DNA of 63,915 bases, filler included, from Folioceros fuciformis (lineage: Eukaryota): NCBI GenBank assembly GCA_049999805.1. It is 12 parts of 12 records of this genome, joined end to end, with 100 filler letters (N's around TTAATTAATTAA, not from the genome) between each part and the next. Parts side by side here need not be neighbours in the genome. Positions count along the whole stretch, not along the records: positions 30,492 to 36,551 come from JBNGIO010002238.1; 11 more parts are not named here. One strand, given 5' to 3'. Below, in pieces: positions 3,000 to 39,163 of the stretch (position 1 is the first letter of the stretch; each line of letters starts with the position of its first letter). Made by a program: the position numbers and the translations under genes. A model generated the notes under the pieces. The model was not told the origin of the DNA, made no database searches, and worked only from the letters and a program-made list of their open reading frames with translations.

Positions 3000-3555
3000 C
3001 GACCTTGCGTACTCATGTAATCCAAGCTCAAATATGCAACTTATCCCTTCGTTGAAAAATTGTTAGCCCTGCTGTCACGTATGCACCTGCTTTCGGATGC
3101 CGAACCCAACTGTCTCTTCTCCTACCAGCACTCGATGTGACCCTTGCCATCGTTTTGGTCACTGGTGATCCACGCTTTAGCTGTGATCGGATGATCCAAG
3201 TGGTCACAATGGGGATTTTGTCACAGATGTGCTTGGAGGACTTGAACAACTAGATGTCGAGCTCCGATGGCCGACTAAGCAGCTCGCGCTGTTCTAGCTC
3301 TTTTCGTTTGCTAAGACTAGCACACGGAAACGCAATGACTTCTGAACTTCGACTATGAGATTGATTCCGCTTGTAACTATGCAGCTTCAGACCTTCCAGC
3401 TTCAAGACTCCTCTGGTTTGTTAGTTCTATTCACGCTCCCTCCACACTTAGTCCATAAGAACGTTCTTCATAGCGTGAGCACATTTCTCACGTTGTCCAA
3501 GATTGTTGAATCTCACTATGCATCAAGAACCACAAGAGCCTAAAGCTTCAACACT

Positions 3556-3805
3556 CCTCTTGCATTGTCTAGGGTCCAAGACCTCACAACTGCAAGGTGA
3601 CAAGAGCCTGAAGCATCAAAATGCCTCTTGCATCGTCTTGGTTCCAAGACCTCATGACTACAAGGTGATAAGAGCTTGAAGCGTCAAAATGCCTCTTGCA
3701 TTGTCTTGGGTCCAAGACCTCACGACTACAAAGTGACAAGAGCCTGAAGCATCAAAATGCCCCTTGCATTGTCTTGGGTCCAAGACCTCACGACTGCAAG
3801 GTGAC
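3556..3805. repeat. 68-bp tandem repeat, about 3.7 copies, in the retrotransposon 5' leader
   Basis: Units start at 3556, 3624, 3692, 3760 (cctcttgcattgtcttgggtccaagacctcacgactgcaaggtgacaagagcctgaagcatcaaaatg). Confidence 0.95.
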
Positions 3806-4582: not shown

Positions 4583-4869
4583 TTCATCTCTGAAAGATCT
4601 AATAGTGTGCCTTGTATATCAATTTACATTGCAATTACATACTTGCCAATATAAGTGTTGGGGTGTTGGTGAAGGGATTGCGCACCAGCCAATATAAAGT
4701 GTCAGTGAAGGGATTGCGCACCAACCAATGTAAGTGTTGGTGAAAGAACTTTTTGTGTATAGAGGCTGGTGAACGAATGTTATCTCTATCCAGTGTGTTC
4801 ATCTCTTACATGATTTGACAGTATGCCTTGTATAATAATGTCAAGCTACACACTTCTACCTTACTGCAA

Positions 4870-5330
4870 ACACTTGGTGTCTAGACTCTTTAGCATGTGC
4901 TCTACGGACCTTGTTGTGTTGACATGCTCAAGTCACACCAACTCATTGACATGCCCAAACCATACACTTGGTGTCTAGACTCTTCAGCATGTGCTCTACG
5001 GACCTTGTTGTGTTGACATTCTCAAGTCACACCGACTCATTGACATGCCCAAACCATATCGGATCATTAATACGGCCCAAACCAAATCATCTCATTACCA
5101 TGCGCAAACCACATCTGCTCATTGATATGCCAATCCACATCGACTCATTAACATGCTCAAACCACAACGACTCATTGACATGCCCAAACCACATTGGCTC
5201 CTTAACATGCTCAAAACACATCTGCTCATCGACATGCCTACACCACATCAGCTCATTAACATGCTCAAACCACATCCGCTCATTGACATGCCTAAACCAC
5301 ATCCGCTTCTTTGCATTGACATGCTTGGGT
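4870..5330. repeat. 94-bp direct duplication merging into a 27-bp minisatellite
   Basis: cacttggtgtctagactc at 4871 and 4965; then about 27-bp units ctcattgacatgcccaaaccacatc. Confidence 0.9.
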
Positions 5331-5395
5331 TACCATAGCTAGCTTGGGAATTGCATGATGACAAAGATTATGATATTCCTTACATGAGCAGCAAA

Positions 5396-5795
5396 AACCT
5401 GTAGATGGCAGGGCTACAAGGTAGCAATGGATGCTGCAGAGACCTGTAGATGGTAGGGCTACAAGGTAGCTATGGATAATGCAAAGGCCTATAGATGGTA
5501 GGGCTACAAGGTAGCGATAGATGCTACAAAGACATGTAGATGGTGGGTCTACAAGGTAGGGATGGATGTTCCAAAGATCTGTAGATGGCCGGGCTACAAG
5601 GTAGCTATGGATGCTGCAAAGACCAGTAGATGGTGGGGCTGCAAGGTGGCCATGGATGCTGCAAAGACCTATAGATGGTGGGGCTACTAGGTAGGGATGG
5701 ATGGTGCAAAGACGTGTACATGGCAGGGCTACAAGGTAGCGATGGATGCTGCAAAGACCTATAAATGGCAGGGCTACAAGGTAGCAATGGATGTT
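5396..5795. repeat. 45-bp minisatellite, 9 copies
   Basis: gtagatggcagggctacaaggtagc-like unit at 5401, 5446, 5491, 5536, 5581, 5626, 5671, 5716, 5761. Confidence 0.95.
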
Positions 5796-5987
5796 GAGCT
5801 TGCTTGGTATATTGAATTGAGGCAGGCTTTATTTCACATTAGTTTGCAACGAATCTCGATTGGTACTTTCGCTTTGACTTTCACTTAGCTTTGGATAGCA
5901 AGATTGTGAAGTTTGGCATCTCGGATAAGGAAGTCTTAGCTCACTATCCAAGTGGTTTTGTAATAAGGCAATATATTCTATAATAAT

Positions 5988-22913: not shown

Positions 22914-24198
22914 TGTGGAGGCAAAACCCCGGGCACTGATTGCCAACGGGTTCCACCTTTAGTGGCCACACTTATCCCACTGTCATTGAGACATTGGGTT
23001 TCGTTCCCACGAAGGAGCGATGGGGTTCCTTGCTGCTGTGGATGGAGGGTCGGACTTGATCGACTCGATGACGGATTCGAGGGCTCCCCTCCAGCTCCGA
23101 TCAGGCGTAGGACAGGCCTCGCTGTCCAGCGGTCAGCTGCACCTCTCTCGGTGCCCACAAACTCACTCCAGTCACTACAACGACTCTAACCTCTCAGATC
23201 TGCAACTTCCCTCACACACTTCACTCACTCCCTCACTCCAGCACCAACACCAGCAACTACCAGCAACCAGCAACGACACCACTACCTTCTACACTTCCCT
23301 ACGGACTCCTCCTACCCGGCAAGAGTCACTAGACTAACCCCAAACAAAAGGAAGAAGGGAACACACTCCCCTCTTGGGTATCTCCTCCCCACAACCTTAC
23401 CAGACGCCATGAGACATGGCCGGCCTACAGCACTTGACCAAGCAAGGAACAAGAGTGGACAGGTCGAGAGAAAGACACATCCTTTACAATCAAGAGCTAG
23501 GGGCAAGCCCCTACACCCTGGTCATTACACCTTGTGATCCTACCAGACACTATACAACAGGCAACACGCTGCCCGCGATCCTACCAGACATTGTACAGCC
23601 GGCAACACGCTGCCTGCGATCCTACCAGACACTGTATAGCCGGCAACACACGGCTTGCGATCCTACCAGACGTTGCACAGCCGGCAACACACTACAGGTC
23701 CTAGACCAAGCAGGAACAGACCACAAGAGCTCAGGAAGAGAGGACCTCCAAGAGCTCACAAAGAGATAGACTGACTCCCAAAGTGAATGACTCCCTCCTC
23801 CTACATGCTCACCTGATCTTATAGGAGCCTCTCTCTCTCTCTCTCTGACTTCACCTCTCTCTAACTTGAGAAATATTATTTTAATAGCCTAGCCAGCTCC
23901 GTCACCAGCCACTTATTTAGACTTCTAGCACATCCTGCCACCAATGAGCTGCTGGCCCTACCACCACAAGGATCTACCACCTCTTAGACTATCCTGAGAC
24001 TTCAGAGGATGTCTGATCTTGAAAGATCTGGGGACGCCGCCTCTTCCTTGCTGGATGGTCGCCCGCTAAGTCTTTCCCTGCAACTGTTCACCCTTGGTGG
24101 CTGCGCCAGCCTCCAGGGAAGGAGCATGAGCAATGGGAAAGATAGAGAAGAGGTGGGAAGGAGTGGGATCAGCAGCCGGAACCTAGCCTGAAAACGGT
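22914..24198 (-). repeat. LTR family B copy
   Basis: TGTGGA terminus at 22914 interrupts copia; 22914-23175 is the near-identical reverse complement of 54446-54708; TATAAG on minus near 23820. Confidence 0.8.
23536..23700. repeat. 41-bp tandem repeat, 4 copies, inside LTR B
   Basis: gatcctaccagac...ggcaacac units at 23536, 23577, 23618, 23659. Confidence 0.95.
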
Positions 24199-27259: not shown

Positions 27260-27462
27260 AGTTAGAAATAAAAGCAGACCACGTTGGTTCTGTACCAATA
27301 TGGTTAGTCAGCAAGACCTAGCAGTTAGTATAGGTAGTTAGCTAGGCTAGCAAAAGGACACACCCCTTACAAGACCACCTATAAAAGCCCACCTATGAAC
27401 ACACTTAATTCATTGTTAATATAGCATCTTTGCTTAAGAAGCTTCTGCATGCAATTCTAACT
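27260..27462 (+). repeat. Copia 5' LTR with AGTTAGAA...TTCTAACT termini
   Basis: 8-bp terminal inverted repeat, TATAAAA inside, directly followed by a PBS; homologous to 31957-32163. Confidence 0.92.
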
Positions 27463-27474
27463 TGGTATTAGAGC
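27463..27474 (+). promoter_or_regulatory. Primer binding site (tRNA-iMet)
   Basis: TGGTATTAGAGC abutting the LTR end. Confidence 0.9.
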
Positions 27475-27884
27475 CTCGACTCCTACCATGGTCTCTAGGT
27501 TCAATGGCCAGACTTTATACGTATCATTACCTAGGTGAGCCATGGACGTTTGAAGCTCCATGTGCTTGCTTATGGTTAGAAGAAAGTGATACGTTGTTTT
27601 GGATAGCATATTGGTTCTATCTCACTACAAAAAAGGAGCTATGATGAGGTCTTCATCGTCGCTTCCATGCGATTTAATAGACGAGCTTTCTCAAGCCCCG
27701 TAATGAATTTAGTTTGTCTATATTTATATAACTTAAATTTATTGTCTTCTATTTTTATACAAGTTTAGGAATAGGGCAGTTGCACCCTCAGGCGAATCGT
27801 TATCCAACTTAAGTTAGATAACGGGCGCCCCCGAACGGGTGCCACCAGTTCAACGGAATGGGGCAACCAAGGGTACGGAACGGG

Positions 27885-27905
27885 TTTAGGGTTTAGGGTT
27901 TAGGG
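27885..27905 (+). repeat. (TTTAGGG)3 plant telomere-type motif
   Basis: Three exact tandem copies. Confidence 0.85.
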
Positions 27906-30391
27906 TTCAAACCCTGAAACGTTTCGTTTCAACCCTAAACGAAACGGCACACCCGTTCTGCGAACGGGTGTCACCCCTGTTATGTCGAACGGGGCCCCTA
28001 ATACTTTTTCTTATGCTCCTGATAATTGTTTTTCAGGCTCTTTTCCACCAGAAACTAGTGACGATTTTGGTGGCAATCCTCCTCAACTCCGACAGTTTTT
28101 GGCTATGCAATGTGTGCCTCCTACACACTATTTCAACACTGGGACATTGTTAATACCTGCCACCGTAACTGTTAAGGAGGAACCAAGATCATCCTCCCCT
28201 ACTTTCGAGACTTTGGAAGCTGCCTACAAGGAGTTCAAGTACAATGAGGACCAAGCCCAAGCTTCTACTCAAGAGCACGCTCTCTTCATTATCAAAACCT
28301 CTGGTAGTCGATCACACATATCAGCACTAATCTTGTGAATGTTGTTGAAACTGTTCGGCAAATTGAGACAAGCTTTGATAAGGCGAGTGTTTTGAAAAAC
28401 AATCTTGGAGCACAGGATTCAGCTGATGCATGGTAGGTGGCTGGTGTGAGTAAGATTGCTTTGAACTCCCCTAGAAAATTTTTTGCTCACACTACATTTG
28501 TGTTTTTCTGAGCCTTGTGTCACAATACGTTGCTCGTTCACACAATTGTGGAGCCAAGGATTTGACCATGTCAAGAGGCACTCCACCACCACCACCACCT
28601 CCGCCATCTCTGGCTCTTGTGATTAATGGTATGAACGTCTCTATTGACTTTAAAGAGAGAGATCGGTTCAACGAGACCAAATATGAGATTTGGTCTCGAC
28701 GCTCTCAATTTGCGCGATCTTCTCCCACTGGTGGAGGGTGTTTCCCCAAAGCCTACCGCACCTCAGTCAACGGTTGATGCTTGGCTCAAGCTGGATCGTC
28801 AAGCCATGCAAATGCTGGTTTCTTGCCTTGATGAAACCACCTTGCATCACACCGATGGTGCAACTACTTCAGCAGAGGCCTGGAAGCAGATCAATGACAT
28901 CTATCAGTCAACGAATGTGATGACTTTGGTCACCGTTCGACAAGAGTTCTACACTCTTCGGATGCAACAAGGTGATAGTGTTGCCCATCACGTGAGCCGA
29001 TTCAAGTATCTTCGGGCACAATTGGCTGCATTGGGGACTACAATGTCTGAATTTGATGCTGCTGTCCAGCTGCTAGCTAGCCTTCCGGCTAGTTATCAGT
29101 CGTTCGTCTCTTCCCAAAACCAGTTGGTCCAAATTTCATAACAAGCAGTGGCGACTGGTGGACAATCCACGCTAACTATGTCCTAGCTTGCTAGCGCGCT
29201 CCTTCAGGAGGAGGCATTTCGCTTCAACTCTAGCACATCTAAACATGGTGGAGAGCGAGTGATGTTTGTGGCTCGAGGACGGTCACAAAATCAACAACAG
29301 AAGAGAGGGACTAACCCCCGGAGAAACAACAACTCCCGCACATCAAAGGCTGCTCCTTCTGCCGCTTCCTCCTCCAAGCCTACAAAATGTCAAGGGACAT
29401 GCAATTGGTGTCAGTCACCCGGCCATTGGGAGCGGGAGTGCAGAAAGAAGCAAGCCGGTGAGGCCAAGCGTGAGATCAAGACAGCTAATACAGCTGTCTT
29501 TTCCAAGGCCAAGACCCAGTCCAAGTCTGAGATTGCTTTAACCGTGTGCCAAGCTCCTTGCCATGACTCAGCAGGACTTGTATCGAGATAAGTTGCCCTC
29601 CTTGGCCAAGACACCACCTCTTTGTGAAGCGTGTGTGCTTGCCAAGCAGCGGAGCTCTCCCTACTCAAGTCTTCCTGCTCATAGGGTTTCTCAGCCTTTG
29701 GAGTTAGTTCACGTAGACTTGTGTGGACCTCTCCCTGTTACTTCTTTAGGCGGAGCACGCCATTTTATGACGATAGTGGATGATTATTCCCGCTACTCTT
29801 TGGCGTACCCGCTTTGTCTCAAGAGTGACTCCTTTGCTGTGTTCTCACCTTTTGTTTCTACGGCCGAGTTGCACACTGGCTGCAAGCTACGGTGCATCAG
29901 ATCCGATAATGCGGGAGAACTCAACAACCATTAGTTCAAAGACTAATGTGAGGCGTGTGGGATCTTGAGACAATTCACTGTTCCCTACACTTCTGCTCAT
30001 AATGGCATTGCTAAGAAGGCCAATGGCGATTTTATGGCCATGGCGTGGGCTATGTTAGCCTAGCCTCGCTTGCCTAAGTCTTTTTGGGCTGAGGCAATCT
30101 CTACGGCAGCCTACATCAAGAATAGGTTACTGACCAAGTCCGTTGTTGGCCGTACTCCTTTCGAGTGTTGGCATGGGTACAAGCCTTTGATCACCCATTT
30201 GCACGTCTTTGGCTCTCCTGCTTATGCCTATGTCCCCTCCCAGCTTCGTGATAAGCTTTCTTCCCGAGCACGGAAGCTAGTGTTTGTGGGTTATAGTGAA
30301 GATCGCAAGGCGTACAAGTTGATGGACGTGGCTACTTGGACTCTTGTTTATGCTCGAACTGTCACTTTTGACGAGGCTAGTATTCTCTCTT

Positions 30392-30491: not shown

Positions 30492-32163
30492 ACATGGATC
30501 AACCTGAGGATTATCAGGATAAGAGATTCCCACAAAAGGTGTGTAAACTCCTTCGATCTATTTATGGGCTAAAACAAAGTCCTCGACTGTGGTACAAGAG
30601 AATTGACTCTTATCTTAAGAAGATTGGCTTCGTGCAAAGCGAAGCAGATACTAACTTGTATGTGCTCCAAAAGGACAACTCACTTATTTTAATAGCATTA
30701 TACGTGGATGACTTAGTTATCCCCGGTAATAATGTGGAGCTGGTTAACCAAATCAAGGCTGATCTCAGCAAAGAGTTTGAAATGAAAGATTTGGGTCAAG
30801 TTAAATACATTCTTGGGATGCACGTACACAAAGACAGGTCCTCTGGAGCTATCTACCTTCATCAAGGTCGATATGTAGCTGGGATGCTCAAGAGGTTCAA
30901 CTTGGAGAATGCACGAGCAGCTGTCACCCCAGGTGCTGTTGGAGTTAAGCTCTCCTCGTCGTCTTGTCCACAGTCTGACGAAGAGAAAAAGGAAATGGAG
31001 AGTGTGCCTTATCGTATGGCGGTCGGCTCCCTCATGTTTCTAAGCAATTGGACTAGACCAGACATATCTAATACTGTTAATGCAGTTGCGCAATTCTTTG
31101 AGAACCCAGGAAGGTATCACTGGGTAGCACTTAAAAGAATTATGCGGTACCTCAAGGGTACTCCTAACTATGGTCTCTGCTTCAAGCCCAGTGGCAAAGG
31201 AGTCTACAATTGACTTGCTATGTCGATGCAGATGGGCTTCCGATGCAGATACTCGAAAGAGTCTTTCGGCCTATTGCTTCCTTGCCGGCTCCACAGTTGT
31301 GAATTGGTCTTGTAGAAAACAAGCCTCTATATCTTTGTCCTCCACGGAATCGGAGTACAAAGCTCTCACAGAAGCTACAAAGGAGGCAGAGTGGGAAAGG
31401 AAGTGATGCGAAGACTTAGGTATGCAACAAGCTGGACCTACGATTATTAACTGTGATAATATGTCAGCCATCGCCCTAGTCTCCAACCCTGTGTTTCATG
31501 CCCGTACTAAGCACATCGAGATTCAACATCACTATGTTAGAGATGCTGCTGAGAGGGGCTTAGTGAAGATACAGTATGTGTCAACAGATGATAATACGGC
31601 TGATGTTTTGACAAAGTCTTTGCCCAAGTTTAAACACTGTTTCCACAGAGAAGGGCTAGGACTTTTAGATTGTAGTAGCTATGTGACGCTACACAAATCA
31701 CACATCTGGTGAGGCTTTCCGTGGTTGCTCCGTCGCCACCAAAGATAACTTAATTAGAGGACTCGCTTCCACTCTGGTCATGACTGGTGCTCAACTACGT
31801 GAGTTGTTGTCGACGACAGACTCAGCGTCAGCAAGTGCGACTAGAAGATGTGACAGTCGAGTTGAAGATGGTAGCCTTCCTGTGCTCGTTATTCTTAGTG
31901 GTGATCTCCGTTTCTTAGCTTGGAGCCCTCAGAACAGTAACGTGTCTGAGAGGGAGAGTTAGAAATATTAGCAGACCACGTTGGTTCTGTGCCAATATGG
32001 TTAGTCAGCTAGACCTAGCAATTAATATAGGTAGTTAGCTGAGGTAGTGAAAGGACACATCCCTTGAGGAGACCACCTATAAAAGCCCACCTATGAACAC
32101 ACTTGTTTAACTTTTGTTTATATAGCATCTTTGTTCAAGACGCTTCCGCATGCAATTCTAACT
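30492..32163 (+). mobile_element. Ty1/copia 3' half (RT, RNase H, PPT, 3' LTR)
   Basis: SIYGLKQSPRLW, LYVDDLVI, TRPDIS, RTKHIEIQHHYVR; PPT GAGAGGGAG at 31948-31956. Confidence 0.95.
31957..32163 (+). repeat. Copia 3' LTR with AGTTAGAA...TTCTAACT termini
   Basis: Follows the PPT; homologous to 27260-27462. Confidence 0.92.
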
Positions 32164-32227: not shown

Positions 32228-33397
32228 TTACAAGCTGGACTTACTCTGCTCATCACCTAGCAGCACCTTGTTATGGACATGCACAAGGTCTAGGGTGGAG
32301 AACAACTCCTTATCCTTACAGATGTGTGTTGTAGCTCCAGAGTCCAGATACCAGCAGCCATCATCGTGAAGAGAACTTGACAAGCAAACAGTAAGAATTT
32401 TTACTGGTGCCTTGTCAACATTCTGCTTCTCTTTTACAGCAACATTGGCATGTGGCTGCTTCTGTGGCTCACCTGCCTTGCATTTGCGGCACTCTCGTGC
32501 CCAGTGGCCAGGAGTTCCACACCAATTGCAGGTGCCGGAACGTTTGGTGGAAGAGCTGGCAGATTCAGAGCGACCAGAAGAGCTTCCACCTTGATTTCCC
32601 CCTCTGAACTTAGACTTGCCTTTAGGAGGTCTAAAATTCACAGCCAAGGCCTTCTCAGGTCGTGCTGCTTTAGAAACAACAAAGCCATGAAGCAGCCTTG
32701 CTTGCTCTTCCTGGTAGAGTGCTCCAATCACTTCCTCAACAGTGGGGGCGTTGGCAGCAACTACACCAGGTTTGATGGAGGCATTTTGGCTGGTAATGAA
32801 ATTTTTGTATGAAGGAGGGAGGCTAATGAGCAGCTGGGACACAGCCTCAACTTCAGGCATCTTGTTGCTAGTCAACGACGTGATCTGGGCTCTCAATTGC
32901 TGAAACTTGCTTGTGTGAGTTGCTATCTTTTCTCCTTCCTTCATTTTCAATGAGTAGAATTGCATCCTGACAGCTGATAGTGACATCATATTTGTGGAGT
33001 GGTAGGTAGTCTCCAATTGATCCCAAATTTCCTTGGGCGATGTCGAGAATTCAACATCAGGGACAAGGTCTGCAATTAAAGCATTGATGAGCAAAGCCAT
33101 GGCTACACTATTGTGGTACTCCCACTTAGCGTATTCATCTGGCTTTGATTTGGGGTCAAGCTTTTGAAAGCTCCCATCAACACTTGTCCACACACCTCTG
33201 ACAATAAGGACAGCCTTCATTCGGACTCTCCAGACCTGGTAACCGGTCCCACTGAAGCGGTCCTTTCCTTTGACATCTGATGTGAAAGATGTAGAAGGGG
33301 TAGCCATGATGGGTGGTTGGAGTGGAGGGTTTGCAGGTTGTAACGTAAGATTGTTTAAGTTATTAATGAGGGCGTTCAGGTGGGCTTCAACGGACAT
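32228..33397 (-). CDS. Copia Gag plus protease start (premature stop)
   Basis: 389-aa ORF: RFSGTGYQVWRVRMKA, CNWCGTPGHWAREC, WYLDSGATTHIC. Confidence 0.9.
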   Translation of the reverse strand: MSVEAHLNALINNLNNLTLQPANPPLQPPIMATPSTSFTSDVKGKDRFSGTGYQVWRVRMKAVLIVRGVWTSVDGSFQKLDPKSKPDEYAKWEYHNSVAMALLINALIADLVPDVEFSTSPKEIWDQLETTYHSTNMMSLSAVRMQFYSLKMKEGEKIATHTSKFQQLRAQITSLTSNKMPEVEAVSQLLISLPPSYKNFITSQNASIKPGVVAANAPTVEEVIGALYQEEQARLLHGFVVSKAARPEKALAVNFRPPKGKSKFRGGNQGGSSSGRSESASSSTKRSGTCNWCGTPGHWARECRKCKAGEPQKQPHANVAVKEKQNVDKAPVKILTVCLSSSLHDDGCWYLDSGATTHICKDKELFSTLDLVHVHNKVLLGDEQSKSSL

Positions 33398-33866
33398 GAA
33401 AAACTTGACGATTAAGAAGAACTATGGTTCTTCCTAATGCAGCTAAGTTCTCATTCATGCACTGCATTCAGATTTGTAGGAAACACTAACCAATTCATGC
33501 AGGAATGGAGTGCTGGGCTGCTCTACTGGAAATAAAGGTGCTAGCCAATATTGCTAGGATCAGGTCCTGCTGAGCTCCTCAACATGCTATTCGAGCATAC
33601 TTGTTGTGAAAGGTTGTGTCCATACCTGCAAACCCTAACTTGGATAACGGTTCATGAAAAGCCTTTAAAAATTAGGTTAAAAGCAAAAAACTAACCGTCA
33701 TGACCATCTGCTGAAGTGACAGGTACAAGTGGACCAATGTTTGCTGAAGAATGTTGTCTAATCAAAAGGTGCAGGGGAAGAATGCATCGATTCATATCAG
33801 GATGCAAGAGGAGCACTCTTGCACCTGCATGACCCCCGCTCTACAGCAGCGGAAGATTCACAATGC

Positions 33867-34565
33867 TCAAATAATCGAGCTTGATCCTGAATGAGAGCAA
33901 CCCTGTTCTCGCTCGTGAAGCCTCAAGTCAATCAATTTCATAAAATCAGATACGTCATTGATGTCTCTTGAGATTTCTTGTGTGCTCTCAGAAACGGCTT
34001 GCTCAATTTCAGGACGTCGTGTCAGAACTCTGTTCTTCAATAATTCTTGGTTTGTAATTACTTGTGATAGCAATTGTTGAACTCTGATTAGAAGAGATTT
34101 TGTACTTATGTCAAATCCTCTTCCAAATCCAGTGCAGGGGCTAACGCTTTCTCTGGCCTGTGTTGTTGCAGGCTGTTGCGTTGTAACTGATTTGTTGGAA
34201 GTACGTAGCGAAGGGTTTGATGCATAAAAAATAGGCGCTCTTAGAAAATCTGCTGGACTAGATGTTTCTGATCTAGGAGAGTAGTGCAAATCAGGGTTTT
34301 GCCCTCTCCTGTAACAACGGTCTCTATAGAGGCAATCAGCATCTCGATTTTAGTTTAAATGAAAATCAAATGCTCCTCTTCTACTATGTGATTCAGCAAG
34401 CCTCTGTAGCCAATGAGTGGGGTAGTTCTGTTCATAGATATCCAGCACCGTATCAGTATCGATTTGTGGTGGTGCCGTTTGTCTTGGTGGGTATCTTGCT
34501 TGTCGAGAATGTCTCGAGATCCCACCATGACTCGGACATCTAGATGAACCACCCACTCTCGGCAT
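33867..34565 (-). pseudogene. Extra ORF upstream of copia gag, unknown function (copy 1)
   Basis: ORFs 34350-34565 and 33867-34289 share peptide motifs with 38837-39118 and 38575-38925. Confidence 0.65.
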
Positions 34566-34597
34566 CTTCCAAGAATTGTATTAATAAACAGAGCATG

Positions 34598-34609
34598 GCT
34601 CTGATACCA
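34598..34609 (-). promoter_or_regulatory. Primer binding site (tRNA-iMet)
   Basis: TGGTATCAGAGC on minus, next to a CA LTR end. Confidence 0.9.
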
Positions 34610-34778
34610 TGTGTAAAATACGAGCGGAGGTGAAAGAATAACAAAAGCATAAAACAGGATTGATTATAATAAATGAGAGTACAAAATTGTTTAAATACTT
34701 TCTAGGTGACTGTTCATGTGTCAACCTTAGATAGCTTAACCTGTGTGTTAGGTTTAACTAAATCATTTATTTTTAATA

Positions 34779-37906: not shown

Positions 37907-37918
37907 GCTCTGATACCA
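37907..37918 (-). promoter_or_regulatory. Primer binding site (tRNA-iMet) of a decayed LTR element
   Basis: TGGTATCAGAGC on minus, 2 nt from a CA end at 37921. Confidence 0.75.
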
Positions 37919-38339: not shown

Positions 38340-38574
38340 CAACTCTTCTAAAGAACCTATCAACATGCAAGGGACACAATGCTGTGAAAGGGCACCAATC
38401 TGGTTGCAGCGCTTCAGATCCTGATGGCCTCCCGTGCTGGTGCAGGGCGCTCCCGCCTATGTTGTGCAGCGAAAATTTCAGGTTTGCGAGCCATCAGCCG
38501 AGGATAGAATTGGTAGGCTGAATTCTCCCTCGTCTTGGGTTTGTACAATGCTCCCTCGTGTTGCAATGTGTAGA

Positions 38575-39118
38575 TCACACAATTGTTGTGTGATAGAAGC
38601 CACAAGATTCTTGATTATTTGTAGCTTCGCTTCGAATCTTTAGATCATCAACTCTGATCTTCAGCACTTCTTGGTTTGATAGTAAACATGACAGAGTCCT
38701 CTCCACACAAGTCACGGTGGCCAAGGTCCTGTTAGCAGTGCCTTGGCTAGTTTGTGGAATTGAATTTCTGTCTATTTGCTGATCACGTCGTGTTGCTGTG
38801 ATTCTAGGTTGGAAAAGAGACTCAACAGGGAGCAATTCACGTGCTTTGTAGCGTAGATTGTGATTGTCTCCGTTGTTGACACCGTGCTTTATATAATTTA
38901 TCCTTAATTGGATTTCTGTGTGCACTTTGAGCTCTTAATCTCCCACTAGAATGGGTTTCTGCAAAACGTCTAAGGCAAATTTCTGGGTAGTTTTGCTCGT
39001 ATAGGTCTAGCAAGGTATCTGGTGGTGCAAAGGAATTGGAGACTTGTCGTCCATGACGATCTCTCTTGTTTGTGTCTAGATTATGTGCATTCCTAGCAGA
39101 TGCTCCCTGCCTAGGCAT
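38575..39118 (-). pseudogene. Extra ORF downstream of a copia-type PBS, unknown function (copy 2)
   Basis: MPR start shortly after the PBS; DTLLDLYEQNYP and LLSNQEVLKIRV motifs shared with copy 1. Confidence 0.65.
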
Positions 39119-39151
39119 TTTGCATGGAAGTTGCTGAGATGCAGAGCATGG

Positions 39152-39163
39152 GCTCTGATACCA
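39152..39163 (-). promoter_or_regulatory. Primer binding site (tRNA-iMet)
   Basis: TGGTATCAGAGC followed by CATGCTCTG as at 34598. Confidence 0.9.

Follow-up and report, generated by a model that had tools for sequence, protein, structure and literature searches.

A conserved ORF between the primer site and gag

The window analysed here, 63,915 nucleotides of Folioceros fuciformis DNA (assembly GCA_049999805.1), consists of contigs joined by N spacers and carries, on separate contigs, two copies of an open reading frame that we call ORF0 (Table 1). The element that holds copy 1 is decayed and belongs to an extensive Ty1/copia radiation carrying ORF0. Its gag is recognised by Pfam (PF14223, E 1.8e-30; also zf-CCHC and Pol_BBD) and has a first ATG at 33397 in weak context and a second, in-frame ATG at 33307 in strong context; the first lies 1212 nt from the PBS, in agreement with the ∼1.2 kb given by an earlier sequence-only reading of this DNA. 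The element is truncated at 32163 by the 3' LTR of a different copia on the plus strand. In copy 2, ORF0 is interrupted at codon 94 by a stop and elsewhere by a frameshift, and the contig runs out before gag. The tRNA and the TTTAGGG repeats are consistent with a plant host. The earlier reading had also described an ORF beginning a few dozen nucleotides past the PBS in two elements on different contigs, with dissimilar LTRs and diverged DNA, and this description holds: both peptides are present, the ORF0 proteins are 42% identical over 91 aa (tblastn, E 3e-13), the two LTRs gave no significant blastn match, and the ORF DNA has only a 29-nt and a 35-nt piece in common. Neither copy is intact, and the second peptide of copy 2 lies in another frame.

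Table 1. Features of the two ORF0-bearing elements in the window
Feature	Position	Strand	Remarks
5' LTR, copy 1	34610..34776	-	Outer boundary approximate; blastn to two related copies begins at 34776; ends ...ACA before the PBS
PBS, copy 1	34596..34609	-	Complementary to the 3' end of tRNA-Met(CAT)
uORF, 18 codons	34540..34596	-	Out of frame with ORF0; overlaps the ORF0 start
ORF0, copy 1	33867..34565	-	232 codons plus stop; ATG at 34565 is PBS+44
Premature stop, ORF0 copy 1	codon 72 (34350-34352)	-	Terminal stop at 33867-33869
Conserved helical core (∼aa 36-100)	34266..34460	-	dN/dS 0.24; helical when relatives are modelled with AF2
Long amphipathic helix / coiled coil (∼aa 150-223)	33897..34118	-	dN/dS 0.29; AF2 models
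Candidate NES-like hydrophobic spacing, helix end (aa 202-214)	33924..33962	-	Pattern across the family alignment
D-arm box, 10 nt, complementary to nt 12-21 of tRNA-Met	33846..33855	-	Probably the second part of a split primer site
Spacer segment, possible intron (candidate)	33422..33695	-	Donor-like GTTAG 33695; branch-like CTTAG 33447; CCATAG 33427-33422
gag and start of protease	32228..33397	-	Stop at 32228 in copy 1
Second copy, decayed, other contig	38340..39163	-	PBS 39163; uORF 39149-39111; ORF0 from 39118

Distribution of ORF0 in the genome

A protein search of the same genome returned 90 ORF0 matches. Across the family ORF0 is a separate ORF of 183 to 235 aa that begins ∼45 nt past the PBS: 72 of 77 stretches examined have a PBS and a start at PBS+37 to +50, with A at −3 in 71 of these 72 copies, and 16 of the 72 stay open for at least 190 aa, one of them via a frameshift. 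The relatives have the gag-protease-integrase-RT order of Ty1/copia (tblastn order, Pfam), and ORF0 is placed between the PBS and gag, not 3' of pol as is the SIRE env-like ORF. Copy 1 keeps only the 5' part of its element; LTRs and TSDs were scored on six relatives with both LTRs, which are 5.7 to 6.9 kb long and have LTR identities of 91.6 to 98.1% and a PPT, with a 5-bp TSD in five of the six. Gag-pol is uninterrupted in 2 of 16 relatives examined. Best identities among the matches listed were 56% for RT and 29% for gag.

To avoid selecting on ORF0, 60 of 150 gag matches were fetched. Ten of these stretches have <1 kb upstream, and eight lack a PBS or ORF0 match. The remaining 42 leaders, assigned by reading, comprise 27 with ORF0 or a diverged form of it (counted when a profile matched or when the ORF near the PBS begins Arg-rich), 14 with a different leader, and 1 with no leader ORF. 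In a quick version of an 82-row gag tree, the leader types are intermixed at weakly supported deep nodes. ORF0 diverges much faster than gag: the ORF0s are 15 to 51% identical to the first row of the alignment, whereas gag stays at 49% or more.

Some leaders are rearranged. The ORF0 start of L097 (L028) is replaced by a run of TTTAGGG repeats right after the PBS, L100 (L042) has a tandem expansion of a short unit within the ORF0 head, and the PBS region of L164 is in tandem copies with a 52-nt period.

A gene under selection and distinct from gag

For 15 open copies (the 16 above minus the frameshifted one, a set picked for openness and related to each other), a codon model gave an ORF0 dN/dS of 0.367 (2dlnL of 225 against 1). 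By region, the values are significant for the core (0.24) and the coil (0.29) but not for the head (0.70) and linker (0.73). Under the same procedure the five other frames gave 1.04, 1.52, 0.99, 0.55, and 1.67; the 0.55 frame is antisense, and we take it to share third codon positions with ORF0. Gag (nine copies) gave 0.10. The ORF0 value is not near 1, the other frames are at ∼1 or more in four of five cases, and the earlier proposal of a selected accessory protein is upheld.

Its companion proposal, a long separable N-terminal extension of Gag, is not supported by the genomic sequence. In all 13 open copies checked, the ORF0-gag spacer (367 to 579 nt) carries 3 to 15 stops in the ORF0 frame and 6 to 11 in the gag frame, with no continuous frame, and the ORF0-to-gag phase is 0, 1, or 2 in six, four, and three copies, respectively. 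Because of this stop-rich spacer, the free phase, and gag's own two in-frame starts, ORF0 is not part of Gag, which also has Pfam domains of its own. That ORF0 extends Gag, stays open without selection, or arises as an artefact of alignment is very improbable and appears largely refuted. Both window copies are broken and 56 of the 72 copies are not open to 190 aa, as a neutral or artefactual frame might be, but gag is also broken in many of the same old copies and the purifying selection on ORF0 is frame-specific. Since 90 matches occur in its own genome and the dN/dS is frame-specific, ORF0 is not a chance frame, and it is almost certainly a real, separate accessory gene of this copia radiation.

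Gag of the relatives has two conserved in-frame starts, often 25 to 40 codons apart, one weak and one strong, suggesting two Gag forms.

A putative split primer site around ORF0

The most invariant non-coding word of these leaders is a box just past the ORF0 stop. It complements nt 12 to 21 of tRNA-Met(CAT), the gene used for comparison having been found in the same genome. The exact 8-mer of the box is present in 56 of 88 leaders and 3 of 88 gag stretches; the latter are the better control, as a shuffle control is loose (54 of 440). In ORF0 elements the box is mostly 600 to 770 nt from the PBS, with ORF0 between the two sites. The primer tRNA would pair at the PBS and at the box, looping out ORF0. 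The PBS and box likely form a split primer site; the complementarity is directly observed, and it is the pairing that we infer. The split tRNA-iMet primer sites of Ty1 and Ty3 likewise have extra D-arm complementarity 3' of the PBS, but the Ty1 segments are described as at most 28 nt apart (PMC4974528); in the ORF0 elements the interval is much longer and holds a gene. Reading the post-stop motif as a hairpin was abandoned in favour of the tRNA match, since the hairpin can form in some subfamilies only.

Proposed translation of ORF0 and gag-pol

AUG is the lowest-ranked of the 64 triplets in ORF0 (observed/expected, 0.4 to 0.5); among 15 subfamily representatives, ORF0 has 71 AUGs in 9474 nt, compared with 171 in 7143 nt for gag. 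In ORF0, T is the last base of a NAY codon preceding G in 38 of 83 cases versus 221 of 266 control codons (p 1e-10), and gag has no such effect (87 of 110 versus 188 of 229 controls; p 0.55). AUG avoidance overrides CpG avoidance, ORF0 codons keeping C and making the CpG that control codons avoid, and a synonymous shuffle of ORF0 agrees (47 observed versus 61 expected). The depletion is partial, with 0 to 7 out-of-frame AUGs per copy; ORF0 is AUG-poor, not AUG-free. An upstream AUG follows the PBS in 69 of 72 copies, compared to 128 of 629 LTR windows, and is absent in several diverged subfamilies. It is out of frame with ORF0 in 62 of the 69, and most of the uORFs terminate on the ORF0 start or shortly beyond it. 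Downstream, 9 of 10 spacers listed contain 4 to 13 AUGs before the gag start, and in subfamily L127 the 399 nt from the box to the gag start contain none. No stable fold is shared among the spacers (z below −2 in 2 of 17).

Scanning across ORF0 to reach gag would favour both the AUG depletion and the uORF, by analogy with rice tungro bacilliform virus (RTBV). ORFs I and II of RTBV and badnaviruses are likewise small AUG-poor ORFs before a polyprotein, described as crossed by leaky scanning (PMC5902531). They are nearly AUG-free and follow a shunt leader, however (PMC5902531), whereas depletion in the copia ORF0 is partial and the spacer bears AUGs, and no protein homology between them and ORF0 was found with Pfam. 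As the first long cistron on the element RNA, ORF0 would capture part of the ribosomes. Others would read the short uORF, terminating past the ORF0 start, or leak past both; such ribosomes would then scan the AUG-poor ORF0 and arrive at the gag-pol start, and small uORFs or an intron in the spacer may take part in some subfamilies. We consider it rather probable that the RNA is bicistronic and that gag-pol is reached by leaky scanning or reinitiation.

Gag-pol could instead come from a separate RNA, made by splicing at CCATAG or from an internal promoter in the spacer, with ORF0 translated from the full-length RNA and the AUG depletion otherwise caused. In 27 of 44 copies CC(A/G)TAG precedes the gag ATG by 22 to 28 nt, mostly with a branch-like motif ∼20 nt further upstream; GTTAG follows the box by ∼150 to 170 nt, and the stretch between the splice-like motifs is AUG-rich (observed/expected, 1.49; 16 copies). 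The spacer also carries TTAGGG-type repeats, similar to plant telo-box promoter elements, which would fit an internal promoter. Yet no genomic copy with precise loss of the segment was seen among the deletions listed and relatives checked, one young subfamily lacks the branch-like stretch, and CCATAG could be a relic PBS-like site. Avoidance of out-of-frame AUGs would, moreover, have no obvious purpose unless ribosomes cross ORF0, and we regard a separate gag-pol RNA as possible but doubtful. An antisense spliced gene starting from a CTTACC motif was dropped; its would-be GT is not conserved.

The ORF0 protein

The ORF0 protein is basic and soluble. Its disordered Arg-rich head leads into a small helical core, and its coiled coil has an NES-like end. 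The mean net charge of the first 30 aa is +6.3 (31 sequences), and no stretch reaches transmembrane-level hydrophobicity in any of the 31 (maximum 19-residue hydropathy, 1.38), which sets ORF0 apart from env-like proteins. AlphaFold2 (31 rows) placed helices at 36 to 59, 73 to 85, and 131 to 202 (mean pLDDT, 74), with a pTM of 0.37 that leaves domain packing undefined; in models of relatives the long helix spans 72 to 75 aa, mostly at pLDDT above 85.

The spacing of hydrophobic residues at the helix end resembles class 1a export peptides, although amphipathic helices are described as frequently giving false matches to NES patterns (PMC4596688). Of the 64 complete rows (85 were aligned, from 114 leaders), 52 have the four-position core at a single column, including rows from subfamilies otherwise only 15 to 17% identical, and 17 have it at another site in the helix; 4 of 22 sequences lack the full five-position pattern. 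The pattern is a lead and a candidate only, as most of it comes from coiled-coil heptads.

ORF0 has no relative in the databases searched, apart from one Logan fragment. Pfam gave no match at the curated cut-off for 16 members, PHROGs none for 31 sequences, and PDB sequences a best match at E 0.44. A 5.8-billion word search found no relatives among 5016 candidates (lengths of 102 to 412 only), and a 1.84-billion profile search gave one match, the Logan fragment (P0004), at 67% over 58 aa to one copy. Two tries at ESM Atlas yielded no usable match, and one single-protein query of metagenome and viral contigs yielded no relative. Structure searches were dominated by generic helices: Foldseek found nothing at E 0.001 in BFVD or PDB, and a VIA fold search that barely probed the core returned only generic coiled coils (best Z, 7.3). 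Among the RNA contigs of one run, a single piece matched the neighbouring RT and ORF0 was matched by none, from which we draw no conclusion.

Other leaders in the pre-gag slot

In a sister clade of ten copies (L119, L121, L145, L122, L150, L154, L157, L140, L144, and L128), the box lies 50 to 270 nt from the PBS (it is unreadable in one), and two other ORFs, both under selection, occupy the pre-gag slot. ORF-A (88 aa; dN/dS 0.19, four sequences) ends over the tRNA box where it is present, and is followed by ORF-B, which is ∼130 aa, Arg-headed, and helical (dN/dS 0.54, five sequences); shifted frames gave 1.0 to 1.8. The three tested from this clade had no Pfam match, and hhalign gave ORF0 versus ORF-B probabilities of 0.5 and 5.1%. 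The Arg-rich ORF of this clade is not AUG-poor.

Four further leaders (L123, L149, L167, and L169) have the box 100 to 210 nt from the PBS and then an Arg-rich helical ORF; in L123 and L149 a long Pro/Gly-rich open stretch continues into gag. L165 has only 92 nt between the PBS and the gag core, without any leader ORF. It groups with the ORF0-bearing L120 and L124 (support 96), and its tRNA D-arm box is in the LTR just upstream of the PBS.

Possible functions

We infer the translation, splicing, and localisation of ORF0 from sequence, and its function is approached in the same way. The job judged likeliest, although we hold it with considerable doubt, is RNA export: the ORF0 protein may bind its own element RNA and would carry it from the nucleus in the manner of HIV Rev and Cer1 CERV. 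Both are element-encoded non-Gag proteins that genomic RNA export requires; an NES is present in Rev, and CERV has a candidate NES together with coiled coils (PMC10309623). CERV is described as made from a spliced mRNA and as having a G-like domain (PMC10309623), whereas export by ORF0 is predicted from sequence, and no homology test with these proteins was passed. According to the part consulted of a 2025 review, direct study of element RNA export has yet to be made in plants (PMC12786077).

Several observations weigh against the export and scanning reading. First, AUG depletion is partial, the spacers bear AUGs and share no stable fold, and the uAUG is missing in several diverged subfamilies. 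Second, the NES-like pattern recurs at a second site, is incomplete in some sequences, and belongs to a class prone to false matches. Third, the Arg-rich ORF of the sister clade is not AUG-poor, and L165 has no leader ORF. On the combination of a separate accessory gene, bicistronic scanning, and some RNA-handling role, we are nearly evenly divided, leaning slightly toward doubt.

ORF0 might alternatively act in host conflict, where the classes of factor include RNA-silencing suppressors and sequence-specific anti-silencing proteins. Its divergence, much faster than that of gag, would suit such a role, as would a basic, soluble, small protein; the purifying selection on core and coil and the lack of likeness to any known suppressor in Pfam searches do not, and we think this role unlikely.

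Plant pararetroviruses encode small basic coiled-coil proteins upstream of the polyprotein, and ORF0 could similarly be a particle-associated RNA chaperone or scaffold that assists in packaging, in annealing the primer across the split site, or in movement between cells. It shares position and translation logic with badnavirus ORFs I and II (PMC5902531), has a basic head and a coiled coil, and lies between the two tRNA sites. Gag brings a CCHC nucleocapsid of its own, however, none of 16 members matched the Pfam caulimovirid families at E 0.05, and the retained NES-like pattern would be left unexplained, which makes this role, too, an improbable one.

The export reading can be extended to the whole radiation, which would then be a "complex" plant retroelement with a Rev-like export cistron inside a split primer-binding site, gag-pol reached by uORF-guided scanning through an AUG-purged gene, and other one- or two-gene cassettes in the same slot of sister clades. 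We think it rather unlikely that this picture holds in full.

Relation to known extra ORFs

The extra ORFs of plant LTR retrotransposons are a long-standing open question. In plant gypsy elements, Ogre and Tekay have a sense 5' extra ORF (PMC6317226) that, like the present ORF0, is lineage-restricted and divergent, and ORF0 of Retrosat2 is also a sense extra ORF (PMC3485330). The host of the present ORF0, in contrast, is a copia (integrase before RT), and there is no demonstrated sequence likeness; neither AUG depletion nor a split primer site appears in those portions of the gypsy descriptions that were consulted (PMC6317226 and PMC3485330).

Among copia elements, REXdb reports 3' sense extra ORFs in 74% of SIRE, and 5' extra ORFs in a few percent of Bianca and Ikeros, although the table cells for those two lineages are ambiguous (PMC6317226). 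The statement in the sequence-only reading that copia extra ORFs lie 3' of pol was therefore too strong; going by these sources, copia elements do carry sense extra ORFs at the 5' side, though rarely. The REXdb elements share with ours the copia superfamily, a tRNA-Met PBS, and a 5-bp TSD, but the present ORF0 is 5', is not hydrophobic, occurs in most of its radiation, and falls below the cut-off of REXdb, which counted only ORFs of at least 250 codons (PMC6317226). Such a cut-off would miss a lineage-wide copia accessory gene. Another paper on extra ORFs covers, in the part consulted, mainly 3' ORFs (PMC7264820), and a literature search, with most subscription papers outside it, found no description of a copia ORF0. 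New here are the AUG depletion of ORF0, the overlapping uORF, the tRNA D-arm box, and the NES-like coiled-coil end. With its selected orphan protein and its many natural variants, the ORF0 family makes clear predictions about translation and export, and these are open to reporter assays.

Other elements in the window

Positions 27260-30391 and 30492-32162 (plus strand) belong to another copia family, whose LTRs end in AGTTAG...CTAACT instead of TG...CA. It has a 1.1-kb leader with TTTAGGG repeats and without ORF0, and its 3' LTR abuts the protease of copy 1. Two further tRNA-Met PBS sites, at 37918 and 17965 (both minus strand), belong to other elements, and tandem arrays with periods of 27, 45, 41, and 68 nt occupy 4867-5841, 23533-23693, and 3534-3804.
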